This document shows, piece by piece, positions 7,459-40,286 of a DNA stretch of 64,000 nt (the stretch's first letter is position 1; every line of letters begins with the position of its first letter). Below the pieces are notes generated by a model. That model ran no database searches. It had not been told where the DNA came from and was given only the letters and a program-made list of their open reading frames with translations. A program made the position numbers and the translations under genes. The stretch covers positions 76,596 through 140,595 of the forward strand of contig NZ_VORY01000008.1 in NCBI RefSeq assembly GCF_007997295.1, read 5' to 3'. The DNA is from Gillisia hiemivivida (GTDB taxonomy: Bacteria > Bacteroidota > Bacteroidia > Flavobacteriales > Flavobacteriaceae).

Positions 7459-7459
7459 G

Positions 7460-9406: not shown

Positions 9407-9407
9407 T

Positions 9408-9626: not shown

Positions 9627-9717
9627 TGACAGATTGTGGGTTTTAAAACCAATAATTATACTGTAGATGTTTATTTGATTAGAATTAGGAAGTAGTTGTT
9701 AAACCATTAAATATCAA

Positions 9718-9747
9718 GGATTTCTTATTTGACTGGAATTCGGAAAA
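9718..9747. repeat. 28-bp direct repeat copy 2 (GGATTTCTTATTTGACTGGAATTCGGAAAA), 13 bp before hsdR start
   Basis: It is a direct repeat of 9598-9626. It lies in the hsdR promoter/leader region. Confidence 0.6.
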
Positions 9748-9759
9748 CAAAATTATAGC

Positions 9760-12810: not shown

Positions 12811-12814
12811 ATAT

Positions 12815-22030: not shown

Positions 22031-22040
22031 AGTATTAGTT

Positions 22041-22532
22041 TTAATAACAAAGTTTAGAAAAGAAGATTGCAGTTTGAGTCTCGAATAGGTCTAAAGGTAT
22101 TCGATGCCCTAATCGAGGATCTATATGAAGGTCTATTTCTTCTTTATCAATGTAGTTCCCTAAGAAAGCTAAAGTCTCCTTAGGATCCACGACATCATCA
22201 ATGCCTCCTAAAACAATCTGCTTATAGGAATTTCCTTTAGTGTAATTAGAATTAATAGTATGCTTGTCTTCATATTTAGCTAATGGTGGATTAAACAGTA
22301 AGCATGGTCTGCCTATGCTGTCTGAAATGATATAAGAATTTAGAGCTCCCATGCTACTTCCAATAATCACATTGATCTCAATATCTTTAAGCTTTTCCAA
22401 AATTAATTTTGGTTGAATATGTTCAATACTGTAATCAATATCGGGGGCGTAAACATTTCCATATTTTTCAAGTATCGCACGTTTTTGATCATTCAATTTG
22501 CTGTTAAGTCCATGTAAATAAAGTATGTTCAT
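22041..22532 (-). CDS. YqiA/UPF0227-like alpha/beta hydrolase (esterase)
   Basis: The N-terminus is ILYLHGLNS and the nucleophile elbow is GSSMG. The protein is small, 163 aa. Confidence 0.55.
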   Translation of the reverse strand: MNILYLHGLNSKLNDQKRAILEKYGNVYAPDIDYSIEHIQPKLILEKLKDIEINVIIGSSMGALNSYIISDSIGRPCLLFNPPLAKYEDKHTINSNYTKGNSYKQIVLGGIDDVVDPKETLAFLGNYIDKEEIDLHIDPRLGHRIPLDLFETQTAIFFSKLCY

Positions 22533-26980: not shown

Positions 26981-27060
26981 TCTTACTATTAGCTAATTAA
27001 AGATAATAAAAAGAAGAAATAATTAAGCTTTTAAATACTTGGTTACATGAATTTCAAAAA

Positions 27061-27150
27061 GTAAGAAGTACTTCGCCCTCACCTATCTTGGTAAGAATAT
27101 CTTTGTCACAAAGATCTTGCAAATCTTTGGTCACAGTTGTTAGGAGTTTT
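27061..27150. repeat. Diverged direct copy (A) of the 3' end of the fic gene (last ~30 codons), non-coding remnant
   Basis: The reverse-complement translation ...DLQDLCDKDILTKIGEGRSTSY resembles the Fic C-terminus ...DLQDLCDKGILTKEGGGRSTSYY. It shares a ~50-bp left flank, from ~27031, with copy B. Confidence 0.7.
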
Positions 27151-27229
27151 TGGTCAGGAATTGTTTTTTAGTGTGTTCATTCCTTTAAAAAGAGTTCTAA
27201 AAACTCTACTTTAATAATTACCACTGAGC

Positions 27230-28039
27230 TTACAACCACTCCAATTGAAAACTTACGTTATAGCCATATTCTTCATTCCTTAGATTGATTTCGGTGGGTT
27301 TTGTATCCCTGTAATCGTTAAGCCGAATGATTAATTCTTGCGAACTCCTTGCAAGGTCTTGTCCAACACCATTTCCGTCATCATCCCCAATTCCAAACTC
27401 AATTGTAGAACGGTCCGAAATATAAAGTTCCTTTTGGGACAAATCCCACTCTAGTTGTTGCTGATTTGGATATATTGGGGAAAGGTACCATAACCTCATA
27501 TCAACAGTGGCTTTCGAAAAATGTATATTTTTTAATTTGTTAAGTGAAAAAATTATATCGGCCATTCGGTTTGGGTCGTCTTCAGCATATTCTTCGTCCC
27601 AGTTGCCATTCATGTTATAAAACGAATTGATCCGGAAGCCAATAACCTTCACCGCATTTCCGCGAGTAACATTAAAATTCAGGGTTTTTGTTGTTCTTTT
27701 TCCGCTGATACTGGTAAACTCCAACTTCACTTCTTCGTTACCTAAATATCCAAATTGGAAGTGCAGATTAAGATTTTGCTCATCTAGCGAAGTACCGGGC
27801 ATTGCTGCCGTAATACTCTGAGAGCCATTTTCAAAAATTCTGGTGATATCATAAATATCTTCGTTAGATTGTACCTTAACTTCAAAAGGTATATCCACTG
27901 TTACTTCAGTTACAGAAGGTGTAAGGTTTACGTTGAAAATTTTTTCAATTTCAGGAAGCTGTTCATTTGCGGAATCAGGACTACACGAAAAACCAAGTGT
28001 TAGCACCCATATCAGTAAGATTTTTTTTCCCATATTCAT
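27230..28039 (-). CDS. Lipoprotein (signal peptide + lipobox Cys), unknown function
   Basis: The N-terminus is MNMGKKILLIWVLTLGFSCSPDS. It lies between repeat copies A and B. Confidence 0.5.
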   Translation of the reverse strand: MNMGKKILLIWVLTLGFSCSPDSANEQLPEIEKIFNVNLTPSVTEVTVDIPFEVKVQSNEDIYDITRIFENGSQSITAAMPGTSLDEQNLNLHFQFGYLGNEEVKLEFTSISGKRTTKTLNFNVTRGNAVKVIGFRINSFYNMNGNWDEEYAEDDPNRMADIIFSLNKLKNIHFSKATVDMRLWYLSPIYPNQQQLEWDLSQKELYISDRSTIEFGIGDDDGNGVGQDLARSSQELIIRLNDYRDTKPTEINLRNEEYGYNVSFQLEWL

Positions 28040-28335
28040 TTTTAAGAAAAACTGAATAAATGTATAATAAAAAAGGATTCGAAAAGTATTATAATTTGAG
28101 ATTTAAAGAAATTATTTTTTTGGACTGAGGAACCTTTACAGTGCTTCTTTTGTAATTACCATTCAATCTTTGGATTTCTGAGTGATATTACTTCACTAAA
28201 GCTTAGTTTTTTCGATTAAATTTTATGAGCCGAATAGAAAATTCTTCTTCCTCAGATTTATAAAGATATCAAGCTGATTAAAAAATTTATTAGAAGCATA
28301 TGTTTTTAAATACTTGTTTGCATGAATTTCAAAAA

Positions 28336-28427
28336 GTAAGAAGTACTTCGCCCTCCACCTTCCTTGGTGAGAATACCTTTGTCACAAAGATCTTGTAAGT
28401 CCCTTGTGGCTGTTGGTTTGGAGGTTT
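28336..28427. repeat. Near-identical direct copy (B) of the fic 3' end (91/92 identical to 38994-39085)
   Basis: It matches the real fic 3' end exactly except one base (gtaagtccc vs gtaaatccc). It has an A-like left flank. It forms a hybrid att-like junction. Confidence 0.8.
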
Positions 28428-28796
28428 GGTGTATTTGAGTGAGGCCTTAAGTATTTTGATATTTTCGCATTTCAAATTTTCACATAATAACTATGGGAGA
28501 TCAGAAAAAGCACAAGGGAAATAAAACACCCCAAACTACAAATCATAATATTTTCCAGAGTTCGAATATTCATCAGCATAGAGATGCCCATAATATAAGT
28601 TATCAAAAAAATCGTGAAACTTATGATCTTAAAGGTCTTCCTTACTTGCATAGCTGAAAGTTTAGGAAATAAATTTAAAAATAAACAGCCTTATTCATTG
28701 AAAATTAAAGTCATATAATCTTCATGTTATTGTTAAGGGAGAGAGGCTATTTGATTAAGGGTTATGTAAATAAGGGCGATAGATGAAATTTAATGC

Positions 28797-29552
28797 TCAC
28801 ATCTTTGACCTCAATCTTGCAAATTCCTGCTCCAACAGGCTAAGTTTTTCCTCCAGGCCATCCCCGGTTTCAGGAATTCGGTGATAAAAAACATAGCAAA
28901 TACGCCAAAGTTCCTTCACCTCTTTCAGGTTTACTTTGATATCTTCTACTACCTTATGATCTGCCCTCAAAACTACGGTATCATTGGTGATGTAGAGCCT
29001 GCGCAGAACCAGCTGATCCTGATAAATGACCACCACCAGGATCCCGTTGTCTAATTTCTTAAACCCCGATTTAGGAATAATCTCTCCAATAACAACATCT
29101 TTAGGAAATAAGCCTTTATCATGATTACTCATTTCTAAGTTGTCTACTGTATAACCCCTGTAATTTGTTTCTTTGCTTATAGGAAGACGTAAGCACGGCA
29201 TGTTCTTGATGAAGTCCTCCTTGTCAAAATAACGTTTATAGTCGTTGCTGTTACTATGTACAATGCACGGCACCACAGCAAATTGTTCACGCACCATTTC
29301 TTCGTGATCTGTGATCATGCTACTTTTAAACTTCAGTAGCTTGTTTACGGTAAGCTCTTTGGTAAGTAGATCATCTATGGGAATGCTAAAATGGTTAGCA
29401 ATTTTAATTATGGTTTCGATCTTGGGTTCACTTCTTCCTTCTTCGTAAGCCCCAAGTGTACCTCGCTTTAAGTCGAAAAGTTCGGCAAAAGATTGTTGGC
29501 TTAAGGATCTTACGCTTCGGATCTTCCGAATATTTTTACCAAAAAATGACAT
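28797..29552 (-). CDS. XRE-family HTH regulator with LexA/CI-like (S24-like, probably degenerate) C-terminal domain
   Basis: The N-terminus carries IRKIRSVRSLSQQSFAELFDLKRGTLGAYEEGRSEPKIETIIKIANHFSIPIDDLL (HTH_3). The C-terminal beta-rich domain lacks a clear GDSM motif. Confidence 0.6.
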   Translation of the reverse strand: MSFFGKNIRKIRSVRSLSQQSFAELFDLKRGTLGAYEEGRSEPKIETIIKIANHFSIPIDDLLTKELTVNKLLKFKSSMITDHEEMVREQFAVVPCIVHSNSNDYKRYFDKEDFIKNMPCLRLPISKETNYRGYTVDNLEMSNHDKGLFPKDVVIGEIIPKSGFKKLDNGILVVVIYQDQLVLRRLYITNDTVVLRADHKVVEDIKVNLKEVKELWRICYVFYHRIPETGDGLEEKLSLLEQEFARLRSKM

Positions 29553-29872
29553 AATTTGCTAATTTAATTTGCAGCATTTAAAAAATATTGTATATTCGTC
29601 TAACAATATTAGCAAAAAGTTTTCACTTTACCACAATCATTAGCAATTCATTTCCTCCCTACAAGAAATAATTGCTAAAAAGTAAGGAGGAAAAAACAGT
29701 GTCTTCGAGACCTCGATCTTTAATTTTTTAATAAAAACACTAACTTTAAAAGCCAAAAATTATGATTCCATTAATAATTATGTTTTTAACCCACGTAATA
29801 ACCAAAGCTTTAGAACTTTTTTGTATTATTAACCTTTAGAAATTTTTAACATTTTCTAACTAAACAAACTCA

Positions 29873-30268
29873 ATGAAAAATCATTACAATATTACCAGGG
29901 ATTTTTTACTGGAACTAAATTTTGATATCTCCCGAGAAGCAACAGAAGATTGTATCCTTGTGGTTCAAAAAGAAAGTGCGGGAATAAGAAATCTCATCCT
30001 TGGAGTGGCGCCTCCCATCCTTATCCTGGAACAGTTTATTTTCAGGATCAATGACCAGTCTGAAAAGATCTTTAAAAGCCTGCTGCAAAAGAACCGCGAT
30101 ATTATTCACGGAGCCTTTGTCCTGGACGAGAGCGGTGAGAAGGTGATCTTTAGAGATACCCTTCAAATCGAAAACATGGATATCAATGAATTGGAAGGCA
30201 GCCTAAACTCGCTAAGCCTTTTAATGAGTGAATATTCCGATAACATTATTGAATTTTCTAAATACTAA
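29873..30268 (+). CDS. YbjN-like (putative sensory transduction regulator / T3SS-chaperone-like fold) small protein
   Basis: This is a 131-aa acidic protein. Its size and pattern (hydrophobic core segments, C-terminal LSLLMSEYSD) are compatible with the YbjN family. The assignment is weak. Confidence 0.35.
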   Translation: MKNHYNITRDFLLELNFDISREATEDCILVVQKESAGIRNLILGVAPPILILEQFIFRINDQSEKIFKSLLQKNRDIIHGAFVLDESGEKVIFRDTLQIENMDINELEGSLNSLSLLMSEYSDNIIEFSKY

Positions 30269-30280
30269 AAATCTAAAATT

Positions 30281-30997
30281 ATGAACTTATTTAAGCGATT
30301 ATTTAAAATTGGACAGGCTGAAACCAATTCGGCTATAGACCAAATGGAAGATCCCATCAAAATGACCGAGCAAGGCATAAGAGATATGAAAGAAGATCTT
30401 GACAAAAGCCTTGAAGCCCTAGCACAGGTGAAAGCTTTGGCTATTCGTGCGAAGAACGATCAGGATGAACATCAGAACAAAGCCGATGATTACCAGAACA
30501 AGGCCATTGCTATCCTAAAAAAAGGACACAAAAAGGAGATGGATTCCGCAGAGGCAGACCGCCTTGCCAAAGAATCGCTAATTCAAAAAGACCTTAGCGA
30601 CCAACAGGTAATTCGCTCAAAAGAAGAGTCTGCTAAGTTCGACAACAATGTAGCCCAGTTGCAAAAAAACATCCAGTCTATCAAAGGGAATATTGGGAAT
30701 TGGGAGAACGAATTGAAAACCCTGAGAGCGCGCGTGAAAGTGAGCAATGCTACAAAAAGCCTCAATAAGCAAATGGCACAGCTGGACAACTCGGGAACTG
30801 TGAGCATGCTGGAACGAATGAAGGAAAAAGTAGCCCAGGAAGAAGCCCTTGCTGAAGCTTATGGAGATATTGCAAACGCAACAAAATCCATAGATGACGA
30901 GATCGATAAAGCAGCAGATACCTCTAAGGGTAAGGCCGAAGAAGATCTTGCGCAATTGAAGGCAAAACTGGGGCTTAACGATTCTAAAGACCAATAG
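30281..30997 (+). CDS. pspA: PspA/IM30 (phage shock protein A / Vipp1, ESCRT-III-like) family protein
   Basis: The N-terminus MNLFKRLFKIGQAETNSAIDQMEDPIKMTEQGIRDMKEDL matches the PspA_IM30 start. The coiled coil spans the whole protein. Confidence 0.85.
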   Translation: MNLFKRLFKIGQAETNSAIDQMEDPIKMTEQGIRDMKEDLDKSLEALAQVKALAIRAKNDQDEHQNKADDYQNKAIAILKKGHKKEMDSAEADRLAKESLIQKDLSDQQVIRSKEESAKFDNNVAQLQKNIQSIKGNIGNWENELKTLRARVKVSNATKSLNKQMAQLDNSGTVSMLERMKEKVAQEEALAEAYGDIANATKSIDDEIDKAADTSKGKAEEDLAQLKAKLGLNDSKDQ

Positions 30998-30999
30998 CT

Positions 31000-31716
31000 T
31001 TGACCGATCTTTTAAATATATTATTCTCTGAAGTTAACCTGGTACTTTCCATCCTGCTCATCGTGCTAATTGTTTACTGGATAGCCACAATGATAGGCGG
31101 TATTGACTTTGACCTAGATTTTGATATAGATGTTGATGCCAATATTGAGCCTGCGTTGGACCTGGATGCAGGTATAGAAGGTGGCAATATGGATTTTGAG
31201 GATATTTCAAACGCCGAGGTCAATCAGGAAGATGTCGTTGGAAAGCGCCGAAATCCGCTAAAATGGTGGCAAATATTTTTGATCTACTTCAATTTTGTAG
31301 GCCTTCCATTCATGTTCACATTTACCTGTTGGATCTTTTTCTGGTGGTTCATGACGGTGCTTACCACAGCACTTACCTATACATATGACAATTTTATTGG
31401 GTTTGCCATTATGCTGCTGGCTCTTTTTCCGGCGTTGATCGTGACTAAAATTTTCACCACCCCGTTCAAAGGTTTTTTCAAAAATCTCAATAAAAACGGA
31501 GATTCACCTATAGATTATTTGGGAAGAAAAGCCATGTTGCTCTCTTCAATTTCAGAAGATAAGATGGGCAATGCAGAGGTGAAGGTAGACGGTAATTCCA
31601 TGTCTATATATGTAAAATCACTTAATGGAGAAGCTTTACCATACGGAAGTAATATCCTAATCATCAAAAGGTCGCCAGACCACAATTATTATTTAGTTCA
31701 AACGTACAACGATTAA
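31000..31716 (+). CDS. NfeD/YqiJ-like membrane protein (TM segments + acidic region + C-terminal OB-like domain), flotillin partner
   Basis: It uses a TTG start 2 bp after pspA. The TM helices are VLSILLIVLIVYWIATMIGGI and a WWFMTVLTTALTY...LLALFPALIVTKIF region. The C-terminus MGNAEVKVDGNSMSIYVKS resembles the NfeD beta-barrel. It directly precedes the flotillin gene. Confidence 0.5.
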   Translation: MTDLLNILFSEVNLVLSILLIVLIVYWIATMIGGIDFDLDFDIDVDANIEPALDLDAGIEGGNMDFEDISNAEVNQEDVVGKRRNPLKWWQIFLIYFNFVGLPFMFTFTCWIFFWWFMTVLTTALTYTYDNFIGFAIMLLALFPALIVTKIFTTPFKGFFKNLNKNGDSPIDYLGRKAMLLSSISEDKMGNAEVKVDGNSMSIYVKSLNGEALPYGSNILIIKRSPDHNYYLVQTYND

Positions 31717-31730
31717 AAAAACTTAAATTC

Positions 31731-33812
31731 ATGAATTCAATTTTACCAATTATTGGCATTGGGATAGGCATAGTTCTCTTCCTCATCATCGTCTACTTCG
31801 CAATCATTGCGATGTTCTACAAAAAAGTTCCCCAGGGTCAGGCCCTAATCCGTACCGGTTTTGGCGGATCCCAGGTTGCTACAGATAAAGGTCTATACGT
31901 AGTACCAGTATTCCATAAGGTTGAAATTATGGATGTTTCAGTAAAAAAGATCCAGATAGAGCGCCTTGCTCATGAAGGACTCATTTGCAAGGACAACATG
32001 CGTGCAGATATTAAAGTAGCCTTTTTCGTTAGGGTGAACAACGATATTGACTACATCAAAAAAGTGGCTCAAACCATTGGGGTAGCCCGTGCATCTAAAA
32101 TAGAAACTTTAGAAGATCTTTTCGAAGCAAAATTTTCTGAAGCACTTAAAACCGTTGGAAAGAAATTTGAGTTTATAGAGCTTTATGAAGCCCGCCGGGA
32201 ATTTCGAGATGAGATCGTGAATATTATAGGTACAGATCTTAATGGATATACACTGGAAGACTGTGCTATCGACTTTTTGGAGCAAACCCCAGTTACGGCT
32301 TTAAAAGCAGATAATATTCTAGATGCTGAAGGGATCAAGAAGATTACTGAACTCACTGCTATTCAAAATATTAAAGCCAACCTTATAAAGCGAGATGAAG
32401 AAAAGACCATCCGCAAACAGGATGTAGAAGCCCGGGAAGCGATCCTGGAACTCGATAAGCAGTTAGCTGAAAAAGAGGAACAACAAAAACGAGAGATCGC
32501 AAACATCAAGTCCAGGGAGGAAGCTGAAATCTTGAAGGTTTCTGAAGAGGAGCGTCTGAAATCTGAATCAGCACGAATTATCACTCAGGAAAAAGTGAAA
32601 GTTGCTGAAGAAAATATGGAGCGCCAGATCATTGTAGCACTTAAGAACAAGCAAAGGACCGAAGCTGTGGAAACAGAACGCGTTGAAAAAGACCGCATGC
32701 TTGAAGCTACCGAAAGAGAACGCGTGGTGACATTGGCCCAAATCGAGAAAGTGAAAGTTGTTGAAGTTGAAAAGAAGAATATTCAGGATGTGATTCGCGA
32801 CCGGGTAACCCTTGAAAAAGGAGTGGTTGAGGAGCAGGAAAATATGAAAGATATTGAAGCCTTCAAAACTGCCGATCGTGAAAAGCAGGTGAAGATAACT
32901 ATTGCTGAAGCTAATGCTCAGGAAAGCCTTATCAAAGTAACCAAAGCCGCTGAAGCTTCTAAAGAAGCCGCTAAACAAAGAGCAGAAGAGATTAATATTG
33001 AAGCTCTGGCAGAAAAAGAAGCCAGTATTAAACAAGCAGATGCCCGTAAGATCCTTGCAGAGGCACAAGCCAAAGAAGAAGCTACCATTGGGATGTCTGA
33101 AGCTCAGGTAATGCACGCAAAAGCTGATGCCCACGAGCGCCAGGGAATTGTGGAAGCAAATATAATAGAACTTAAAGCCAAAGCCTTGGCATCAGGAATT
33201 GAAGCCAATGCCGATGCAAAACGTAAAGATGGCCTTGCTGAAGCTGCCGTGATCAAGGAAAAAGCCCTTGCCGATGCTGCAGGAATTGAGGAGAAAGCCA
33301 ATGCAATGAAGAAACTTGACGGGGTAGGAAAAGAACACGAAGAGTTCAAACTACGTCTTGACAAAGACCTTCAGGTAGATCTTGCACACATCAACATCCA
33401 GAAAGATATCGCCGATGCCCAGGCCGCAGTGCTTGGAGATGCTTTACGAGCTGCTAAAATTGATATTGTAGGTGGTGAAACTATGTTCTTTGACAAGATC
33501 ATAAGCCAGATCACCAGAGCCAAAGGATATGACAGGTTGGTGGAGAACAGTACCAATCTACAGGAAGTGAAAACCGCCATTTTAGGCAGTGACAACCTAA
33601 AAGGAGATTTGCTGGACAAGATCAAGATGTTCACAGATAAGTACGGCATTTCTTCGGAAGATGTAAAGAATCTGAGTATTGCGACATTGCTGAACAACCT
33701 TAGACAGAAGTCTGATGACCAGGAAGAGCAAACGATCTTCGGAAATTTGTTAACCTTGGCCGATGGTCTTGGGATCTCAAATAAACCGCTCCCAAAACTC
33801 AACCATAAGTAG
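31731..33812 (+). CDS. Flotillin / SPFH (band 7) family protein, YqiK-like, with long C-terminal coiled coil
   Basis: An N-terminal TM (IIGIGIGIVLFLIIVYFAIIAMF) is followed by an SPFH domain (GQALIRTGFGGSQVATDKGLYVVPVFHKVEIMDVSVKKIQIER). The Ala/Glu/Lys-rich flotillin repeats follow. The protein is 693 aa. Confidence 0.85.
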   Translation: MNSILPIIGIGIGIVLFLIIVYFAIIAMFYKKVPQGQALIRTGFGGSQVATDKGLYVVPVFHKVEIMDVSVKKIQIERLAHEGLICKDNMRADIKVAFFVRVNNDIDYIKKVAQTIGVARASKIETLEDLFEAKFSEALKTVGKKFEFIELYEARREFRDEIVNIIGTDLNGYTLEDCAIDFLEQTPVTALKADNILDAEGIKKITELTAIQNIKANLIKRDEEKTIRKQDVEAREAILELDKQLAEKEEQQKREIANIKSREEAEILKVSEEERLKSESARIITQEKVKVAEENMERQIIVALKNKQRTEAVETERVEKDRMLEATERERVVTLAQIEKVKVVEVEKKNIQDVIRDRVTLEKGVVEEQENMKDIEAFKTADREKQVKITIAEANAQESLIKVTKAAEASKEAAKQRAEEINIEALAEKEASIKQADARKILAEAQAKEEATIGMSEAQVMHAKADAHERQGIVEANIIELKAKALASGIEANADAKRKDGLAEAAVIKEKALADAAGIEEKANAMKKLDGVGKEHEEFKLRLDKDLQVDLAHINIQKDIADAQAAVLGDALRAAKIDIVGGETMFFDKIISQITRAKGYDRLVENSTNLQEVKTAILGSDNLKGDLLDKIKMFTDKYGISSEDVKNLSIATLLNNLRQKSDDQEEQTIFGNLLTLADGLGISNKPLPKLNHK

Positions 33813-33820
33813 ATAACTTG

Positions 33821-33850
33821 CGCCCCGGGCAACCGGGGTGCTTTAATTTT
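33821..33850 (+). terminator. Rho-independent terminator after flotillin gene (CCCCGG-GCAA-CCGGGG stem-loop + T-run)
   Basis: A GC-rich 6-bp stem with a GCAA tetraloop is followed by TGCTTTAATTTT. It lies 9 bp after the stop codon. Confidence 0.7.
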
Positions 33851-33977
33851 CCACACGAAAAGCGAAATTTTCCCACAAGTCATTTCTGGATCTGGAAGGC
33901 CACGAAGGTTTTCATGCGCTAACAAGATCTAGATTGTGTAGGATCATTCATGCGTTTCAAAATTATTACATAGAGAA

Positions 33978-36900
33978 ATGGCAGAAGAGCAGGCAACAAT
34001 TAAGGACACTCAAACCCTCGACGGCGGCACCTATGAGATCATCCAGGGCCGTTTACAGAAACAAAAGACCGAGCTGCAGGAGCGTTTACAAAAACTTAAT
34101 GTAGAACGCAAAGAGGTTTTTGGTTCTCTGGAGACCAAATTGATCTCTACAGACCGTATAAATACAGAGAATAATTGCATTGCCCGGGACATCATCTCCC
34201 TGGGAAATACCTGTGTGTTTGGTTACAACGTGCATTTCGGTTTGCGAACCGAGATTAGTCTTTCAGATGTTTTTAGTATCTATGAATTCAGGGACAATCG
34301 CTTTGAGCCTAAGCCGCTAGATATTTTGCAGGATGAGGTTTTTGTGGCCGACTTTGCCAACCTTTACAAGTATTACCGCAACACCATTTTCTCTAAGTTT
34401 GCTGTTATTGGGAATTACCTTCATATGGTTTTTCAGCTTAGTGACAGTGCAACAGATATTAAGACTTTCAAATGGCTCATAAGGGACAACACTCTTCAAT
34501 ATATTGATAATCGTAGTGAAACAGAGTACAAATTCAAGCCTCAGCACGAATTCAAATGGCTTGAGGTAACCCGGGATATGCATCGCTACGGCGTGCATTC
34601 TCATGTTTCTATTCTGGATAAGGTTTTTGTAGAAACCATTGGAGGTGATCTTACCATTAAGATCGAGAACAACACCCAGGACGGAAAAGGAATCCTCGAT
34701 GAGCCGGTGGAGCATCAGGACCAGACTTTGGACGACGGGCAATACAAATTCGCCAATTTAGGCAACCTTATCGCTTTGGAAATAAAGCCATTTCAGGAAG
34801 CGCCGCGGTACTTTGTATACAACCATAAGCTTAAGGAAGTCAAGAAAATTGAAAGCATCAAAGATTCCTGTATCCTGTTGCCAGACGATCAGGGAATTAT
34901 TTTTCCTACCGGATATTACTTGCAAACCGGGGAGTACAAGATTCTCAACAATGAGATCCAGAATGTAAAGTTTGAGCAGAAGATCGCTTCTCCCAATGGC
35001 GAAGATTATCTTTATGTTTTCTATTCCCCCGGGGAAGGCCTTTACAACCTGATGTCTTACAATATCATCACCCAGGAGATTCAAACCCCTATTATTTGCA
35101 ACGGATTTACAATTCTTAAAAACGGAGAGCTCTGTTATTTTAGAACTGAGAATGAGCAAACTAGGCACCACGTAATCCAGATCTGGCAAACCCCGTATTT
35201 ATCAGGAGATTTTATGCCTTCACAGCACGAGGATACTTTGCTTTACAAAATTGGAAATAAAGATATAGTCAAAGCGATGGCCGAGGTGAACGGACTTGTA
35301 AATTTACTAAACAAAGAAGACAACTACGGCGGATTGTATCTGGATATCTCCAAATTTTCAAGGGACATTCTCGATTCCTATTACTGGTTGCCGGAGCCGG
35401 AAGCGCAGCAACTCAACGAGCCTATTGGAGAGATCAATAAAGCTGCAAATGCTGCGATAGATGAATTTGAGAAAGTTGTTCAGCTTAAGAAAAACGCGCA
35501 GGGACAAACCAAAGAGATCAGGGAGAAAGCACAGGCTATTTTTAGCAAAGTGAAAAGCTCTTCCTTCAAATCTATCAATGATTTTGTGTTGTTCTTAACC
35601 GAGTTGAGGAAGCTTCGCGGGGAGGCTATTAGCCTTAAGGATATTCGCTACGTAGATGCAGATTTTATTAAGCAGCTGGAAGAGGAGATCGCCCAACAAA
35701 CTCAAAAAATTTCTGAAAAGTGCGTACATTTCTTATTGGATCAAAAAGCATTGTTACCTTATCAAAAGACCGTTGATGAAAAGCGGGCAGCTTTAGAAAA
35801 AGTCAACAAGGTCATAGAAGTAAAAAAACTGGAGGAGGAGGTAAACCAAATAGCGGCAGATCTTGAGATGTTGATAGAGATCGTTTCCAATCTCGATATT
35901 GAAGACACCGCGCATTCTACAAAAATCATCGACAATATTTCTTTGATCTTCGCGACAATCAACCAATTGAAAGCCGCACTGAAAAATAAGAAAAAAGCTT
36001 TGGGAAGTGAAGAGGCACGTGCCGATTTTGCAGCTCAATTAAAGCTTATAGACCAGAGCATCATTAATTACCTCGATATTTCATCAACACCTGAAAAGTG
36101 TGACGAATTCCAGACAAAGATCTCGATACAGCTGGAGGAACTTGAAGGAAAATTCACAGATTTTGAAGAATTCATATCTCTAATAATTCAAAAGCGGGAG
36201 GAGGTTCACGCAGCCTTTGAAGCGAGAAAAAATTCTCTTGTTGAAAAGCGGAACAAAAAAGCCCTCGCCCTTCAAAATGCTGCAGATCGGATTTTGAAAG
36301 GAGCCATTTCTAAAGCTGAAAGGTTTTCAACAGCCTCAGAGATTCACGGGTATTTTGCTGCAGATCTTATGATCAATAAGGTTCGCGACATCATCAAACA
36401 ATTGGTGGAACTGGAAGATAGCGGGAAAGCTGAAGAGATAGAGACCAGCCTGAAAACCGCCAGGGAAAACGCGCTGCGAAAACTAAAGGATAAACTCGAT
36501 CTTTACGAAGATGGCGACAATGTGATCAAGCTGGGTAAACATAAGTTTGGAGTGAACAAGCAGCCCCTGGACCTCACCATCGTTTTAAAGGATGGCACCC
36601 CGCATTACCATTTAACTGGAACTGATTTTTACCAGGAATTAAAAAACCAGGTTCTGCTGAATTCAACCGCACTGTGGGAGCAGGAATTTGTTTCTGAAAA
36701 TCCGAAGGTGTATCGTTCGGCTTATCTCGCTTACAAATTATTCCGAAAGATTCCTCAAGCAACCTTGCTGGAGTCATCAGAAGAAGGGCTGCTGAAAATC
36801 GTGCAGCAGGAAAGCAATAGCGATTATACTGAAGGTTATATTAAAGGTGTTCACGATGTAGATGCCGCCAAGATCCTCCGGGTGCTGGTTCATAAAGATT

Positions 36901-38870
36901 ATGAACTAGGACTACTCACTTATTCGCCAAAAATAAGAGGACATGCACAGTATTTCTGGAACAGCTTAACCGCTGAAGTTCGCAAGAATTTAGACCAGAC
37001 TATGAAGGCTTCAGGAGAAGTATTGAGCATTTTTCCCAATACGCGGGAATACGATTTTCTGATCTCAAAGCTGAGCGGGCACATCTGTAACTATTCAGAA
37101 GGATCAGGTTTGTTTTCTTCAGAATTTAGTGAAAAAATAGCCGCTTATATTTTTGAAGAGCTACAAAGTGATAACGATTTTGTACGCAGTAGCGTTGCTT
37201 TGTTTTTGAAAGAAGATTTTTTAAAGGCATTGAAAGAACAACAGGCCGACCTTAAATTCAGGAAAAGTTATGAAGCGGAAACAACTTATGAAGGAAAGAT
37301 CCGTTTGATCAAACAGTGGGTTTCGGCCTTTGTAAATAGTACGGAGCAACCTGAAACATTGGGAAAACCTTTGCTTCTCAATTATGTTGATGAGGTGGTA
37401 TGCCTTATTATGTTTGAAGATGGATCTGTTTCTAAAACCAAAGCCGTATCTCCCGGGGAAACCATACAGGGATTAAGCGGGGATCATCCAAGTTTTCAGG
37501 ATGGGGTTTTTAATTTCAATTACCACAGTTTTGAAGCTCAACTGGAGGAGTTTGTAAATAATAACATTCCTGCTTATAACACTTTTAGAAAGGCAAAAAA
37601 CGAAGTGACCAAACAGCTCAAGGAAGACCTGAAACTCGAAGAGTTACAGCCAAAAGTGTTGACTTCCTTTGTACGAAACAAGTTGATAGACCAGGTGTAT
37701 TTTCCATTGTTTGGAGATAATCTTGCAAAACAATTGGGAACAGTGGGGGATAAGACCCGAACAGACAGAAGCGGAATGCTGCTGTTGATCTCACCCCCTG
37801 GCTATGGAAAAACTACGCTTATGGAATACATTGCAGATCGTCTTGGCTTGGTATTCATAAGGATCAACGGCCCTGCAATTGGTCACGAGATCACCTCAGT
37901 AGATCCGCTTTCAGCAACAAATTCTGCAGCCAGGGAAGAGCTGAAAAAGTTGAACCTCGCCTTTGAAATGGGGAATAATGTGATGCTTTATCTTGACGAT
38001 ATCCAACATTGCAACCCAGAGTTCTTACAGAAATTCATTTCTCTATCTGATGGTACCCGAAAAATAGAAGGGATCTTCAACGGGAAATCAAAAACCTATG
38101 ATCTGCGCGGAAAGAAATTTTGCGTGATCATGGCCGGAAACCCATATACTGAAACCGGTGACAAATTCAGGATTCCCGATATGCTTGCCAACCGGGCAGA
38201 TATTTACAACCTGGGAGATATCATTGGAGATACCGGGCACTTGTTCAAGCTAAGTTTGATCGAGAATTCGCTTACTGCGAATCCGTTATTGCAGCAGTTG
38301 AGCAGCACCCATTTTGACGATATATACACGCTTATTGACAGGATCGAAAATAATACTCAGGACACCCAACTTACCGGAAGTCATACCGCCCAGGAGGTGC
38401 AGGAATACACCTCGGTGCTTAAGAAAGTGATTGCCATAAGAGATACTGTTCTTAAAGTAAACGCTGCATATATAAATAGCGCCGCTATGGAAGATGAATA
38501 CAGAACACAGCCCACGTTTAAACTTCAGGGTTCCTATAGAGATATGAACAAGCTGGTGAGCAAAGTAGTACCTATTATGAACGACAAGGAGCTGGAGAGG
38601 CTTCTGCTTTCTCACTATGAGAGCGAATCGCAAACCCTCACTTCTTCTGCAGAAGCCAACCTTTTAAGATACAAGGAGCTTATAAACCGCCTTGATGAGA
38701 CAGAGCAGGAGCGGTGGAAAACCATTAAGGAAACCTTTGTGAAAAATAATAAGCTGAAAGGTTTTGGAAATAAGAATGAAATGGCGCAGGTGCTCTCGCA
38801 GATGATGCAGTTTTCAGATAATCTTGAAGGAATCAAAAAAGTATTGGAAAGAGGTTTGGAGAGGAATTAA
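33978..38870 (+). CDS. Giant (1630 aa) multidomain protein: N-terminal beta-rich region, ~700-aa coiled-coil, C-terminal MoxR/dynein-type AAA+ (AAA_5-like) ATPase module
   Basis: Walker A is LLLISPPGYGKTTLMEYIADRLG and Walker B is VMLYLDDIQHC. A sensor-like GNPYTE...NRADIYNLGD follows. The central part carries heptad-rich E/K/L segments. The gene is visibly more GC-rich than its neighbours. Confidence 0.7.
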   Translation: MAEEQATIKDTQTLDGGTYEIIQGRLQKQKTELQERLQKLNVERKEVFGSLETKLISTDRINTENNCIARDIISLGNTCVFGYNVHFGLRTEISLSDVFSIYEFRDNRFEPKPLDILQDEVFVADFANLYKYYRNTIFSKFAVIGNYLHMVFQLSDSATDIKTFKWLIRDNTLQYIDNRSETEYKFKPQHEFKWLEVTRDMHRYGVHSHVSILDKVFVETIGGDLTIKIENNTQDGKGILDEPVEHQDQTLDDGQYKFANLGNLIALEIKPFQEAPRYFVYNHKLKEVKKIESIKDSCILLPDDQGIIFPTGYYLQTGEYKILNNEIQNVKFEQKIASPNGEDYLYVFYSPGEGLYNLMSYNIITQEIQTPIICNGFTILKNGELCYFRTENEQTRHHVIQIWQTPYLSGDFMPSQHEDTLLYKIGNKDIVKAMAEVNGLVNLLNKEDNYGGLYLDISKFSRDILDSYYWLPEPEAQQLNEPIGEINKAANAAIDEFEKVVQLKKNAQGQTKEIREKAQAIFSKVKSSSFKSINDFVLFLTELRKLRGEAISLKDIRYVDADFIKQLEEEIAQQTQKISEKCVHFLLDQKALLPYQKTVDEKRAALEKVNKVIEVKKLEEEVNQIAADLEMLIEIVSNLDIEDTAHSTKIIDNISLIFATINQLKAALKNKKKALGSEEARADFAAQLKLIDQSIINYLDISSTPEKCDEFQTKISIQLEELEGKFTDFEEFISLIIQKREEVHAAFEARKNSLVEKRNKKALALQNAADRILKGAISKAERFSTASEIHGYFAADLMINKVRDIIKQLVELEDSGKAEEIETSLKTARENALRKLKDKLDLYEDGDNVIKLGKHKFGVNKQPLDLTIVLKDGTPHYHLTGTDFYQELKNQVLLNSTALWEQEFVSENPKVYRSAYLAYKLFRKIPQATLLESSEEGLLKIVQQESNSDYTEGYIKGVHDVDAAKILRVLVHKDYELGLLTYSPKIRGHAQYFWNSLTAEVRKNLDQTMKASGEVLSIFPNTREYDFLISKLSGHICNYSEGSGLFSSEFSEKIAAYIFEELQSDNDFVRSSVALFLKEDFLKALKEQQADLKFRKSYEAETTYEGKIRLIKQWVSAFVNSTEQPETLGKPLLLNYVDEVVCLIMFEDGSVSKTKAVSPGETIQGLSGDHPSFQDGVFNFNYHSFEAQLEEFVNNNIPAYNTFRKAKNEVTKQLKEDLKLEELQPKVLTSFVRNKLIDQVYFPLFGDNLAKQLGTVGDKTRTDRSGMLLLISPPGYGKTTLMEYIADRLGLVFIRINGPAIGHEITSVDPLSATNSAAREELKKLNLAFEMGNNVMLYLDDIQHCNPEFLQKFISLSDGTRKIEGIFNGKSKTYDLRGKKFCVIMAGNPYTETGDKFRIPDMLANRADIYNLGDIIGDTGHLFKLSLIENSLTANPLLQQLSSTHFDDIYTLIDRIENNTQDTQLTGSHTAQEVQEYTSVLKKVIAIRDTVLKVNAAYINSAAMEDEYRTQPTFKLQGSYRDMNKLVSKVVPIMNDKELERLLLSHYESESQTLTSSAEANLLRYKELINRLDETEQERWKTIKETFVKNNKLKGFGNKNEMAQVLSQMMQFSDNLEGIKKVLERGLERN

Positions 38871-38972
38871 CAACAGATCTATGTTCACATTCAACATAAA
38901 ATATTTTCTCTTTAATTTTTATTGTACCATTTAAATCAAATTGATAAAGAATTTCTTAATAGATGATTATCA

Positions 38973-40079
38973 TTATTTGAAACCATTTATATAGTAAGAA
39001 GTACTTCGCCCTCCACCTTCCTTGGTGAGAATACCTTTGTCACAAAGATCTTGTAAATCCCTTGTGGCTGTTGGTTTGGAGGTTTTGTTCAAGGAAACAT
39101 ATTTTCTGGCATTCATTCCACCATCAAAACCTTTGGGGCCAGATTTGAGCATACGTCGAATAGCTTTCTCCTGTCTTTGGTTTAATTGATGTTTATTACG
39201 GTCAAAAAACTTAGTTTTTTTAAGGGTAAACTCAATCAGGGATTCGGCATCTATCTGAGCAGAAATAGTAGTCTTTACAAAGTAATTGATCCACTGAGTA
39301 ATTTCATTTGATCTTTGGGCCAGTTGCAAAGCAGCATAATAGTTTTTCTTTTTTCCTTCCATTGCTTTAGAAAGACTCAATAATACAGGCCGGTCCATAT
39401 ACTGTGAAAGAGCTTTTTCTGAAATGGCTCGTCCAATACGTCCGTTTCCATCTTCAAAGGGATGGATTGTTTCGAAATAAAGGTGTGCAATAGCAGCACG
39501 AAGTATTGGTTTTTTTATTTCCATTTCTCCTCCACGAGCGGTTTGGTTAAACCACTGGATAAAGCGTTTCATTTCTTTGGCAACTATTTTGGAAGGAGGA
39601 GCTTCGTAATGTATTTTTTCTTTTCCCATTGCTCCCGATATCACCTGCATTGGTTCTTCGTGAGTTCGCCATTGTCCAGCCTGAATTTTGGGGTTTCCCT
39701 TCATTAACAACTTATGCCAGCTGAAAAGGTTTTCTTTAGTAAGATCTTCTTTAAAAGTTTTTTGGGCATCGATCATTAATTCTGATATACCTTCGGCAGT
39801 TTTATCTTTTGAAATAATATCGGTTTTTAATCCAAGATTCTTTTTAATAGATGACATTACATCTTTCCTGCTAAGATATTCTCCTTCGATCTCTGAAGTT
39901 TTGAGAGCTTCGGAAACCAGCAATTCTATAATGGCTTCACTCTTTGTTTCTTCCGGTAAACCTTCGAGGATACCATTAATCTTTCCCGTTCTTTGTGAAT
40001 AATCATAAAGCAAATCTTCCACCTCTTCAGTAGAATATTGAAAGTTTGGCCAATCTGCCTGTTGCCAATTATACTTCAT
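38973..40079 (-). CDS. fic: Fic family protein (Fic/DOC AMPylase-type fold with C-terminal wHTH)
   Basis: The canonical Fic motif HPFEDGNGRIGRA is present. The last ~30 codons (38994-39085) are the source of repeat copies A and B. Confidence 0.85.
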   Translation of the reverse strand: MKYNWQQADWPNFQYSTEEVEDLLYDYSQRTGKINGILEGLPEETKSEAIIELLVSEALKTSEIEGEYLSRKDVMSSIKKNLGLKTDIISKDKTAEGISELMIDAQKTFKEDLTKENLFSWHKLLMKGNPKIQAGQWRTHEEPMQVISGAMGKEKIHYEAPPSKIVAKEMKRFIQWFNQTARGGEMEIKKPILRAAIAHLYFETIHPFEDGNGRIGRAISEKALSQYMDRPVLLSLSKAMEGKKKNYYAALQLAQRSNEITQWINYFVKTTISAQIDAESLIEFTLKKTKFFDRNKHQLNQRQEKAIRRMLKSGPKGFDGGMNARKYVSLNKTSKPTATRDLQDLCDKGILTKEGGGRSTSYYINGFK

Positions 40080-40286
40080 GAGCCGATTATATATTTTATT
40101 CGGCTCAAATATACAAAATAAATGATTTGATTAAGGAGCTTATTCGGCTCATAAGTTTCCAGAGCCCAAAAAAGCTTTTCACACTCTATTAGAGTGATAA
40201 AATTTCTTAGAATCATGGCTAACTTATAAACCTTGAGGTGATTTAAATTCTTTTTGCTCCTTTCTAGTGATTAAACCCGAAAAAAA

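Follow-up and report, generated by a model that had tools for sequence, protein, structure and literature searches.

A conserved gene triad of a YqiJ/NfeD-like protein, a YqiK-type flotillin and a DUF3686 AAA+ protein, with accessory PspA, in Gillisia hiemivivida and other bacteria

The module at positions 28797–38870 of the window (the whole 64-kb stretch of Gillisia hiemivivida DNA analysed here) represents a gene cluster that is real and widely conserved in bacteria. Its fixed core is a triad encoding a YqiJ/NfeD-like membrane protein, a YqiK-type flotillin and a giant AAA+ protein of the DUF3686 family. A CesT/Tir–PspA dyad and a divergent XRE/pseudo-S24 repressor accompany this core in Bacteroidota and in some other lineages. 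In G. hiemivivida the module occupies an integration hot spot, where it forms a 10.6-kb cassette that lacks an integrase and has a copy of the fic 3′ end on either side. We propose a conserved membrane-maintenance or stress module built on the triad, a reading that we hold at slightly less than even odds (about 0.45).

The operon has already been described from comparative genomics (Ravi et al., mSystems 2024, PMC11237479, section 19 and Table S3), with a cHTH+protease regulator, CesT/Tir, PspA, YqiJ/YuaF, a Band-7-flotillin and a β-propeller+coiled-coil+AAA+ ATPase as components. These authors also draw the ESCRT-III/Vps4 analogy. A sequence-only reading of the present DNA had held that a dedicated AAA+ partner for a bacterial PspA–flotillin module would be a novel analogue; neither the operon nor the analogy is new.

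Results

Gene organization

ORF calls and profile searches revealed a divergent regulator gene and five co-directional genes (Table 1). The intergenic gaps along the five plus-strand ORFs are 12, 2, 14 and 165 nt, in agreement with the tight linkage proposed earlier for pspA, the YqiJ/NfeD-like gene and the flotillin gene (2 and 14 nt). The strong terminator postulated downstream of the flotillin gene was also found: a hairpin at 33820–33841 (9 bp, 8 of them G–C pairs, ΔG about −19.8 kcal/mol) is followed by a T-rich tail. A comparable hairpin between flotillin and ATPase genes occurs in only 22 of 79 loci, and the terminator is thus not a feature of the whole family. The module is richer in GC than its surroundings, as had been noticed for the giant gene (40.8% versus 33.4% in the left and 37.4% in the right flank); GC3 is 0.41–0.46 compared with 0.31–0.38 in the right flank.

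Table 1. Features of the module and its borders (positions in the window).
Feature	Position	Strand	Remarks
Left att-like direct repeat	28304–28430		displaced fic 3′ end (Fic residues about 330–364) plus about 30 nt
Divergent regulator	28797–29552	−	XRE-type HTH (HTH_19, E 4e-11) and S24-like domain without catalytic dyad
Operator/promoter-like motifs	29556–29646		putative function; invariant across 10 genera
TTGCTAAT	29556–29563		operator-like motif
ATTTGCA	29567–29573		conserved motif upstream of operon
TA..TT	29591–29596		conserved motif upstream of operon
ATTAGCAA	29608–29615 and 29639–29646		operator-like motif, inverted copies of TTGCTAAT
Small ORF	29762–29839	+	25-aa hydrophobic peptide MIPLIIMFLTHVITKALELFCIINL; candidate leader peptide or mini membrane protein
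CesT/Tir-like chaperone	29873–30268	+	131 aa; PF22550 CesT_Tir_1, E 1e-53, full length
PspA/IM30 (ESCRT-III superfamily)	30281–30997	+	238 aa; PF04012, E 2.5e-41
YqiJ/YuaF (short NfeD)-like membrane protein	31000–31716	+	238 aa; TTG start; acidic loop, C-terminal β domain
YqiK-type flotillin (SPFH/Band 7)	31731–33812	+	693 aa; Band_7 E 6e-14, 52.9 bits versus 23.6
Hairpin and T-tract	33820–33849	+	terminator or attenuator between flotillin and ATPase genes; best terminator-like site in region
DUF3686-family AAA+ protein	33978–38870	+	1630 aa; WP_146932281.1 (exact match), NCBI name ‘DNA repair ATPase’
DUF3686 region	34071–35384	+	residues 32–469; N-terminal helix and predicted β-propeller; E 3e-178
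AAA+ ATPase core	37755–38357	+	about residues 1260–1460; Walker A PPGYGKTT, Walker B LYLDDIQH
Right att-like repeat	38986–39112		3′ end of intact fic (38973–40079, minus strand)

Domain assignments

Profile searches supported the earlier domain calls for PspA_IM30, Band_7 and AAA/AAA_5, the exception being NfeD. PspA is matched by PF04012 over residues 2–229 with 142 bits (cut-off 33.9), which by profile places it in the ESCRT-III superfamily. The preceding 131-aa protein, which had been called YbjN-like, is better named after CesT_Tir_1; its matches to CesT (0.0039) and YbjN (0.0045) are far weaker. The flotillin consists of a hydrophobic N-terminal segment, the SPFH domain and a long EA-rich helical region, and shows 29% identity to Escherichia coli YqiK over 450 aa (BLASTP, E 4e-46), confirming the YqiK-like designation.

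The YqiJ/NfeD-like protein has no Pfam match to NfeD or DUF1449, even at E ≤ 10, and the similarities pointing to this assignment are weaker than a Pfam match, yet convergent. The best PDB match of its family profile is YuaF (2K14; weak, E 0.049), hhalign against E. coli YqiJ gave E 2.3e-4 with a probability of only 44%, and the BLASTP match to an orthologue from Hymenobacter, annotated by NCBI as DUF1449, has E 1e-19. A positional orthologue from Deinococcus matches NfeD with E 0.0024, which is below the cut-off. The gene lies directly 5′ of the flotillin gene in all 75 Flavobacteriaceae loci and in 51 of 55 diverse metagenome loci.

The giant AAA+ protein

Pfam matches of the giant protein are to DUF3686, DUF7902 and, at residues 1268–1391, AAA and AAA_5, with AAA_5 above the cut-off. 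Besides the Walker motifs, the AAA+ core contains a pre-sensor-1 β-hairpin, sensor 1 (GNP) and an arginine in ANR, with a sensor-2-like QGSYR further towards the C-terminus. Across 70 homologues with N-terminal identities down to 26%, SPPGYGKT, DDxQH, GNPYT..G..F..PDML.NR and QGSYR do not vary. From Walker A through Walker B, sensor 1 and the Arg finger to sensor 2, all AAA+ motifs are conserved and none is degenerate on alignment, in keeping with the clean P-loop, Walker B and sensor region first described. Walker B reads DD instead of DE in every one of the 70, which may indicate a slow, switch-like ATPase instead of a processive remodeller. The beta-rich character given to the N-terminus was borne out by structure prediction, which yielded a β-propeller, while the coiled coil of about 700 residues was overstated: a crude estimate gives a Pro/Gly-poor helical stretch from residue ~420 to 850, followed by a conserved, more globular region at about 850–1230. 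Neither a protease domain nor a predicted transmembrane segment was found in the protein. The family comprises more than 5600 homologues and is about 70% identical across genera; of the clusters built at 50% identity, 957 are matched at E ≤ 1e-3 and 289 at E ≤ 1e-30. In the top 150 of the 957, full-length members have 1600–2036 aa, with identity reaching 26%.

By its predicted structure, the AAA+ module belongs to the MoxR/AAA_5 pre-sensor-1 hairpin superclade. The model is nearest to MoxR, midasin and dynein modules (best matches in the MoxR family: CbbQ, NorQ and RavA), with which it shares the GNP...G...P..L..R signature and the pre-sensor-1 hairpin. The Vps4/classical AAA clade was rejected, as there is no MIT domain or aromatic pore loop 1 and the hairpin is present. 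MoxR ATPases usually pair with a VWA/MIDAS partner. Unlike these, the DUF3686 protein has a DD Walker B and carries its single AAA+ module at the C-terminus of 1630 residues that include the β-propeller and the helical stalk; no VWA domain was found in the module proteins or conserved neighbours, and the model shows no β-hairpin between strand 2 and helix 2, so that the helix-2 insert is not evident. CbbQ and NorQ, the closest structural relatives, are maturation or activation chaperones, and the ATPase might likewise mature or insert a membrane complex or cofactor in flotillin microdomains, leaving the scaffold itself unremodelled. The β-propeller could then be a built-in adaptor in place of the VWA partner. 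Against such an assembly chaperone, which we regard as unlikely, stands the lack of a conserved client gene beside the triad, the outside neighbours varying by lineage.

Linkage of the ATPase across genomes

The flotillin gene is located directly upstream of the ATPase gene in all 76 Flavobacteriaceae loci with enough DNA, in 53 of 55 diverse metagenome loci, in 7/7 distant look-ups and in all four plasmid records considered (Bacteroidota, Pseudomonadota, Actinomycetota and Deinococcota), which together make 11 of 11 distant contexts. The YqiJ-like gene is the other constant neighbour of the ATPase gene in these sets. PspA is less frequently linked: it is found in 68 of 75 Flavobacteriaceae loci, where it forms a dyad with the CesT-like gene, in 23 of the 55 diverse metagenome loci and in 3 of the 11 distant contexts. 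The constant partner of the ATPase is the flotillin/YqiJ-like pair, and PspA is accessory. The ATPase, which had been regarded as a dedicated partner of PspA, lacks it in about 9% of Flavobacteriaceae and about 58% of diverse loci; it does not occur independently of flotillin, but does so in part of pspA.

These counts bear on the possibility that the giant protein is a Vps4 analogue, chiefly disassembling PspA polymers on a mere flotillin platform. In its favour, the loci with a co-encoded PspA also include those of Hymenobacter, L086 and pQBR103; on the last, a yjfI–pspA polyamine operon leads straight into the triad. For PspA-less triads, Ravi et al. suggest that a PspA from elsewhere in the genome may serve (PMC11237479), and a bacterial Vps4-like activity is regarded as missing in the field (PMC7619361). 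The protein resembles Vps4/CdvC in being an AAA+ ATPase co-encoded with a member of the ESCRT-III superfamily, and differs in its AAA+ clade, in lacking the MIT domain and the pore-loop motif, and in that the PspA linkage is not obligatory. We consider this role quite unlikely. Gene adjacency alone does not tell which protein is the substrate of the ATPase.

Regulator, upstream motifs and small ORF

The divergent regulator is present in 68/68 Flavobacteriaceae loci having CesT–PspA. Its Peptidase_S24 score of 19.9 bits is under the cut-off of 23.3. In the alignment with LexA, position 149, which is variable (Phe here), stands opposite Ser119, and an invariant Arg184 takes the place of Lys156. 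An autocleaving S24 repressor of the LexA/CI type was rejected, as the Ser–Lys dyad is absent. Of the previous label ‘XRE/LexA-like repressor’, the XRE-type HTH and the S24-like domain remain valid, whereas the protein is not LexA-like in a functional sense.

A function of the giant protein in DNA repair, after its NCBI name and the Pfam description of DUF3686, is close to refuted by the gene context. A ‘LexA family’ label is attached to the regulator in some records, and repair genes are occasionally found at a distance of a few kb (L086 has polA, L085 a 5′-3′ exonuclease and L088 Fpg). However, these genes neither adjoin the ATPase gene nor recur, its constant neighbours encode membrane proteins, the regulator does not have the LexA dyad and no paper backing the name was found.

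Additions of the present analysis are the operator-like motifs and a hydrophobic small ORF upstream of the operon. Exact matches to TTGCTAAT occur six times in the window, three of them inside the 91 nt of the motif region. The small ORF upstream of the CesT gene shows a coding signature. Nearly all of the 69 loci compared have a hydrophobic ORF at the same position, its stop about 60–70 nt 5′ of the CesT ATG; 18 loci have a version of exactly 16 codons and 26 loci one of exactly 23. Codon position 2 is the least variable (0.22/0.34/0.42 and 0.31/0.62/0.63), and such an ORF was counted in 47/69 loci, compared with 7.7/69 for shuffled sequences and 23/69 for the reverse strand.

The cassette in G. 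hiemivivida

The island bounded by fic 3′ repeats that had been postulated is borne out for this genome. The repeats at 28328–28430 and 38986–39088 are 95% identical, and a third, weaker copy of the fic 3′ end lies at 27052–27154. In Gillisia sp. JM1, a PAS/response-regulator cassette occupies the same site between the same fic repeats; the left repeat of G. hiemivivida is 94% identical to the JM1 fic 3′ end and 90% to the second copy there. Homology to the JM1 fic begins at 38986, and synteny with a 95.5%-identical relative (L081) stops at 38913. An assembly artefact is unlikely, since a contig from an independent sample is 100% identical over 28369–39056. Fic adjoins the module in 0 of 80 other loci and is not part of it.

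Integrases were found neither inside the cassette nor among the window ORFs scanned across 228–28039; we therefore infer mobility from structure and comparison alone. Like a CIME-type element, the cassette has direct repeats of a gene 3′ end, no recombinase inside and an alternative cassette in a related strain, and it adjoins another element at the same att site, as in tandem accretion arrays; this likeness is one of sequence structure. The module is nearer to that of Salinimicrobium sediminis than to that of Gillisia mitskevichiae. Together with the GC3 offset and the JM1 cassette, this suggests that the G. hiemivivida copy was probably acquired horizontally, as had been argued. The same does not hold for other genera, where the locus is stable within each genus: members of Leeuwenhoekiella, Maribacter, Aquimarina, Dokdonia and Zunongwangia keep their flanks.

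The hot spot in the window also carries type I R-M, two GmrSD genes, a WYL regulator and the SoFic-like Fic. Such surroundings, the XRE-type repressor typical of mobile elements and the presence of members on a few megaplasmids would suit an anti-phage or abortive-infection system on a defence island; abortive infection on a mobile island had been suggested as one candidate role. However, PADLOC 2.0 matched 0/5 operon proteins (only the regulator, as a generic HTH, and the neighbouring Fic, as SoFic, gave a match), a scan of 50,697 phage records gave no homologue, and just 13 of 72,556 plasmid records carry one. In addition to the conserved flanks in five genera, the S. sediminis copy lies beside prs–rplY–pth–ribF, and the identity across genera is unlike that of fast-evolving, patchily distributed defence genes. 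We consider a defence function very improbable.

Discussion

The G. hiemivivida module is an orthologous instance of the operon of Ravi et al., and nothing essential differs. Their archetype from Dokdonia donghaensis (ANH61663.1) shares all six genes, with order and orientation unchanged (Table S3 row), and Dokdonia ATPase orthologues are 77–78% identical to that of G. hiemivivida.

Partnerships of SPFH assemblies with AAA+ machines include HflK/C with FtsH; prohibitin–m-AAA and erlin–p97 are further cases. We adopt the HflK/C–FtsH pair, an SPFH scaffold with a hexameric AAA+ machine at the membrane, as a functional analogy. FtsH, a protease of the classical AAA+ clade, has transmembrane helices, whereas the DUF3686 protein has no protease domain, is predicted to lack transmembrane segments and has a MoxR-like AAA+ module. 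SPFH proteins also partner with NfeD (PMC2636767). As in E. coli yqiJK and Bacillus subtilis yuaFG (floT), a short NfeD-like membrane protein precedes a YqiK-type flotillin; the E. coli locus differs in lacking the ATPase, PspA and CesT genes, and its flotillin has 553 instead of 693 aa. The B. subtilis SPFH protein YdjI is reported to recruit PspA to the membrane (PMC8581546), and PspA is co-encoded with it in pspA–ydjGHI (samGHI; PMC8581546; 10.64898/2026.02.06.704340). That operon has another SPFH subtype and other partners, and no AAA+ ATPase.

A literature search on DUF3686, PF12458 and ‘DNA repair ATPase’ with flotillin found no paper. For the proposed membrane-maintenance module, we infer the following mechanism. 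At the inner membrane, on its cytoplasmic side, the flotillin and its NfeD-like partner would build an SPFH scaffold. The DUF3686 protein would oligomerise via its MoxR-type AAA+ ring, reach the scaffold by the β-propeller on the long helical stalk and use ATP to assemble, take apart or recycle the flotillin assembly and its clients, as well as PspA polymers in loci that encode PspA. Keeping PspA competent for assembly may be the task of the CesT-like protein. Expression would be controlled by the divergent repressor acting on the conserved TTGCTAAT-type sites, possibly also by the hydrophobic leader ORF, and in G. hiemivivida the hairpin probably lowers ATPase stoichiometry. The missing VWA/MIDAS partner, the DD Walker B, the helix-2 insert that is not evident and the limited occurrence of the hairpin count against this mechanism.

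What goes beyond the description by Ravi et al. are the core versus accessory counts, the placement in the MoxR clade, the loss of the S24 dyad, the small ORF and operator motifs, and the cassette-type mobility in one genome. A far-reaching interpretation, which we regard as speculative and rather unlikely, is that the DUF3686 protein would be the long-sought ATP-driven remodeller of flotillin cages and linked PspA polymers, a MoxR-derived Vps4 or FtsH analogue recycling a membrane-repair scaffold. A MifM/SecM-like leader peptide would then report membrane insertion, and the whole machine would move between genera as an att-flanked cassette.

Gene content of the module

The sequence-only reading had described pspA, nfeD-like and flotillin genes closely linked to a giant AAA+ gene. 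ORF spacing, the domain calls other than NfeD and the hairpin behind the flotillin gene were found as described, and its account of the gene cluster is therefore correct. The five plus-strand ORFs are separated by 12, 2, 14 and 165 nt.

Features of the module and of its divergent intergenic region in the window
Feature	Position	Strand	Remarks
Regulator gene, 251 aa	28797-29552	minus (divergent)	XRE-type HTH; sub-threshold Peptidase_S24 match
Conserved motifs	29556-29679, 29820-29856		TTGCTAAT, inverted ATTAGCAA copies, ATTTGCA, TA..TT, TTTGTATTATTAAC, TTTAGAAATTTTTAACA; invariant across genera
Small ORF, 25 hydrophobic residues	29762-29839	plus	Between regulator and CesT gene
CesT/Tir-like ORF, 131 aa	29873-30268	plus	Pfam CesT_Tir_1, E = 1e-53
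PspA ORF, 238 aa	30281-30997	plus	Pfam PspA_IM30, E = 2.5e-41
YqiJ-like ORF, 238 aa, TTG start	31000-31716	plus	Pfam: no match
Flotillin ORF, 693 aa	31731-33812	plus	Pfam Band_7, E = 6e-14
Giant ATPase ORF, 1630 aa	33978-38870	plus	Pfam DUF3686, DUF7902, AAA/AAA_5

The gene previously labelled 'YbjN-like' is present, but the CesT_Tir_1 match makes CesT/Tir-like the better name. The flotillin is clearly homologous to YqiK. For the third operon protein, which the Pfam search left without any match, sequence comparison gives the assignment to YqiJ/NfeD no more than moderate support (YuaF, E = 0.049; YqiJ by hhalign, E = 2.3e-4; an NCBI 'DUF1449' orthologue, 1e-19). Its gene occupies the position described for NfeD-like partners (PMC2636767). 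In a search of NCBIfam, neither the ATPase nor the flotillin nor the YqiJ-like protein matched a specific model. Long antisense ORFs within the flotillin and ATPase genes (e.g. 32568-33134 and 33371-33925, minus strand) were rejected as mere mirrors of conserved genes; the tblastn 'conservation' of these two arises only because they lie opposite such genes.

In the S24-like domain of the regulator, Ser119 of LexA is aligned with a variable residue (Phe in this protein) and Lys156 with an invariant Arg, which characterizes it as a predicted pseudo-peptidase. As the Ser/Lys pair of LexA is missing, RecA-type autocleavage and a link to the SOS response are unlikely.

The giant ATPase

The exact database match of the giant protein, WP_146932281.1, is named 'DNA repair ATPase'. 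This name is unsupported, and a literature search on DUF3686, PF12458 and 'DNA repair ATPase' together with flotillin found nothing; that the protein acts in DNA repair is highly improbable. Its Pfam domains are DUF3686 (residues 32-469, E = 3e-178), DUF7902 (590-673) and AAA/AAA_5 (1268-1391). The motifs SPPGYGKT, DDxQH, GNPYT..G..F..PDML.NR and QGSYR show no variation among 70 homologues. The AAA+ module is therefore intact, and the degeneration of its motifs on alignment, named by the sequence-only reading as counter-evidence, was not found.

In all homologues examined, the Walker B motif carries DD instead of DE. It reads LYLDDIQH at residues ~1336-1343 of the window protein and Asp-Asp-x-Gln-His throughout, resembling the DnaA-type DDIQ motif and differing from the usual hhhhDE. 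The Asp-Asp pair may be a sign that ATP is hydrolysed slowly or in a switch-like manner. A placement of the C-terminal region among the classical AAA proteins, based on a PDB sequence search with P-loop-level matches only, was overturned by a structure-based search, and the AAA+ core is classed as MoxR-like by structure. That the giant protein is a MoxR-type chaperone acting on clients is conceivable, albeit rather unlikely.

Residues 1-510 were modelled with a pLDDT of 88 and a pTM of 0.86. The model has a long N-terminal helix, an all-beta domain of ~350 residues, and helices packed as a bundle. Every Foldseek match of the beta domain was a beta-propeller, with good E-values and low TM-scores. 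This bears out the beta-rich N-terminus proposed earlier. The central coiled coil, put at ~700 aa, is present as a helix, but its Pro/Gly-poor stretch is nearer 430 aa, and after it comes a conserved region of more globular character. Residues ~850-1230 (window ~36525-37667) are conserved and non-coiled, contain the motifs IKLGxHRFxVN, LTGTDF, VYRAEYLA and RYxEGYxKGVHDxDA, and belong to no Pfam family.

More than 5600 homologues of the giant protein were found, with ~70% identity across genera of the Flavobacteriaceae. An exhaustive profile-free search with the N-terminal 700 residues gave 957 clusters at 50% identity (E ≤ 1e-3), 289 of them at E ≤ 1e-30. Among the best 150 of the 957 clusters, the 1600-2036-aa architecture is maintained down to 26% identity.

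Gene neighbourhood across genomes

We compared the upstream neighbours of the ATPase gene in four sets of loci. Among 80 species loci from Flavobacteriaceae, the flotillin gene was directly upstream in all 76 with enough upstream DNA and the YqiJ-like gene was present in 75 of 75; PspA was found in 68 of 75, each time with CesT and the divergent regulator. The second set comprised 55 diverse metagenome loci with at least 3 kb of upstream DNA and 28-47% identity to a distant member. Here flotillin was directly upstream in 53, the YqiJ-like gene was present in 51 and PspA in 23, with CesT plus regulator in nine. In two loci of this set (L126 and L150), and in no others, neither flotillin nor a YqiJ-like gene was detected before the ATPase gene; these could be genuine exceptions, or their partners could be highly divergent. 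All seven distant representatives have a pair of genes for 190-270 and 600-690 aa before the ATPase gene (Band_7 on the larger in four), and one has PspA, in convergent orientation. In the annotated plasmid records, which come from several phyla and agree with this pattern, flotillin was upstream in four of four (two annotated as SPFH or flotillin, two hypothetical proteins of matching size), the YqiJ-like gene, judged by position, also in four, and PspA in two.

From these counts, the fixed core therefore consists of the YqiJ-like protein, flotillin and ATPase (the triad), and the CesT-PspA dyad with the regulator is a frequent add-on. Co-occurrence of ATPase and flotillin thus withstood comparison across genomes, whereas the ATPase is found apart from PspA in part of them. 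The interpretation given by the sequence-only reading is partly right, with the emphasis moving from PspA, present in only 23 of the 55 diverse loci, to flotillin and NfeD as obligate partners.

The module is reported from culturable Flavobacteriaceae, Pseudomonas (pQBR103), Streptomyces, Vibrio and Proteus. A Hymenobacter plasmid carries all six genes; Streptomyces and Deinococcus plasmid records have the triad without further module genes. On plasmid pQBR103 of Pseudomonas fluorescens SBW25, a yjfI-pspA-polyamine operon leads directly into the triad. This co-directional 13-kb cluster (84437-97641; L093/L098) has the order YjfI-PspA-rhomboid-DUF2491-DUF350-DUF1190-glutathionylspermidine synthase, then YqiJ-like-SPFH-ATPase, and joins two PspA context classes kept separate by Ravi et al. 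Lineage-specific insertions within the operon occur in L029-L056 (Aquimarina) and others; in 14 loci a YbjQ_1 gene lies between the PspA and YqiJ-like genes.

Ravi, Aravind, Gennaro et al. (mSystems 2024, PMC11237479; bioRxiv 2020) describe an operon of CesT/Tir-PspA and three further genes, including a YqiJ/YuaF-type transmembrane protein, note abbreviated versions without PspA, list the full gene order with a divergent 'cHTH+Protease' regulator (Table S3, row ANH61663.1, Dokdonia donghaensis) and draw the ESCRT-III/Vps4 analogy. As this published comparative genomics came first, the system was already known, Vps4 analogy included, and its novelty, as claimed from sequence alone, is not upheld. 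According to a 2025 review (PMC7619361), a Vps4-like ATPase is seemingly absent from bacteria and the control of PspA polymer dynamics is unresolved. We consider it doubtful, even more so than a client chaperone, that the giant ATPase is a Vps4 analogue specific for PspA. Experimental work on any module member was not found in the literature searches.

Regulatory features

The 165-nt gap before the ATPase gene contains the best terminator-like site of the region, a hairpin at 33820-33841 with eight G-C pairs, a dG of about -19.8 kcal/mol and a T-rich tail. A hairpin follows the flotillin gene in only 22 of 79 loci, and in some genomes the gap holds small selfish or unrelated genes (DUF559, Vsr-like; IS200-like; DUF3592). 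Thus, the ATPase gene is coupled loosely, not translationally, to the flotillin gene.

The 320-nt divergent intergenic region contains motifs invariant across ten genera, including a TTTG...TA..TT pair whose spacing resembles that of a Bacteroidetes promoter. Of the six exact TTGCTAAT matches in the whole window, three fall inside 91 nt of this region. The invariant motifs probably serve the divergently arranged regulator and operon as operator and promoter elements. Scanned against Rfam by E-value, 28000-40200 had no match.

The small ORF at 29762-29839 has a hydrophobic counterpart (sORF, 12-27 aa) at the corresponding site in almost all of 69 loci (L001-L082), with exactly 16 codons in 18 and exactly 23 in 26. 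Codon position 2 is the least variable, a coding signature, and hydrophobic sORFs are far commoner than in shuffled or reverse-strand controls. The 23-codon version has an invariant ...FL* end overlapping the conserved TTTGTA motif. The sORF, not found in the sections of Ravi et al. considered here, could encode a mini membrane protein or leader peptide; that it senses membrane state is speculation.

Genomic setting

Flanking genes are conserved within Leeuwenhoekiella, Maribacter, Aquimarina, Dokdonia and Zunongwangia, and in Salinimicrobium sediminis the module abuts prs-rplY-pth-ribF; the module is therefore normally a stable chromosomal locus. Based on such within-genus synteny, a simply chromosomal, non-island location had also been considered for G. 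hiemivivida, and was dropped after comparison with Gillisia sp. JM1. In none of the 80 Flavobacteriaceae loci is fic adjacent to the module.

In the window, 28431-38985 is bracketed by a 103-nt direct repeat (95% identical) corresponding to the 3' end of fic, with a third, weaker copy 1.2 kb further left. A contig from an independent sample is 100% identical over 28369-39056, both ends lying inside the repeats. In a relative with 95.5% nucleotide identity, synteny is lost 43 nt past the ATPase stop codon. In JM1, reached via a 90%-cluster member of the Fic protein, the same repeat pair comes after fic (97% identical) and encloses a PAS/response-regulator cassette instead; the next 4.1 kb are 93.5% identical to window 27151-23048 (HTH_17 element, UPF0227, WYL). 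The GC3 of the module (0.41-0.46) exceeds that of both flanks. Window ATPase and flotillin are 84% and 94% identical to those of S. sediminis and 74% and 87% to those of Gillisia mitskevichiae, and are nearer to their S. sediminis counterparts than these are to those of other members of that genus. Together, the repeats, the alternative JM1 cassette, the loss of synteny, GC3 and the closeness to S. sediminis identify the module in this genome as a cassette without integrase, bracketed by att-like repeats and forming part of a tandem array at the 3' end of fic. The module has probably passed from one genus to another. The window ORFs scanned to the left of the module did not include a recombinase.

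The island proposed earlier thus holds for this genome. The high GC content of the giant gene, taken as a sign of transfer, is matched by the GC3 of the module. A reading in which module genes are GC-richer than their flanks wherever they occur was discarded (mean module-minus-flank difference +0.6%, range -3.7 to +5.7, 69 loci).

Between two fic-3' repeat copies lies a 1.2-kb mini-cassette (27155-28303), absent from JM1, with an ORF for 269 aa (27230-28039, minus strand) without Pfam match. A WYL-WCX regulator and a UPF0227 gene are located at 21140-22532. On the other side, 40158-62986 (~22.8 kb, encoding a TolC-like protein, ABC ATPases and some eight MacB/FtsX-type permeases that are paralogues of one another; repeat families D1-D6) separates fic from 62986-63446, DNA directly beside fic in JM1 (98.9% identity), and is a large indel relative to that strain.

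Defence genes form an island in the left part of the window: a low-GC cluster (228-14173) contains type I R-M genes (HsdM, HsdS, HsdR) with an inserted RhuM gene, along with two genes of the GmrSD family, one of which has DUF7834, and a PIF1/UvrD-like helicase. For the module itself, a function in phage defence is improbable: PADLOC gave no match for the operon proteins, and tblastn against phage sequences gave none either. Literature searches on flotillin with anti-phage and on MoxR with flotillin found nothing relevant.

Proposed function and significance

SPFH proteins are recurrently paired with NfeD and with AAA+ machines (HflK/C-FtsH, prohibitin-m-AAA), and PspA is recruited by an SPFH protein in Bacillus. 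The most parsimonious model built on these pairings, to which we assign a probability of roughly 0.45, would be a scaffold handled by the giant ATPase. Flotillin and the YqiJ-like protein would form a membrane scaffold; the ATPase would form a ring-shaped oligomer of roughly 1.1 MDa with six stalks, each tipped by a propeller, would assemble, dismantle or recycle the scaffold and, where PspA is encoded, would also act on PspA passed on by the CesT-like chaperone. The analysis itself shows which genes the module contains, how often they are linked, that the motifs of the ATPase are intact and to which fold classes its proteins belong.

The basic association of PspA, flotillin and ATPase is not new. 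Added here are the precedence of flotillin over PspA, the lack of support for the 'DNA repair' name, the candidate leader sORF and, in this genome, a cassette-like mobility of the module. Invariant Walker motifs, beta-propeller, operator motifs and leader sORF offer experimental handles. Being conserved and genetically compact, the module is a candidate for an energy-dependent step in the assembly and dismantling of flotillin in bacteria, and also for such a step in PspA polymer biology.
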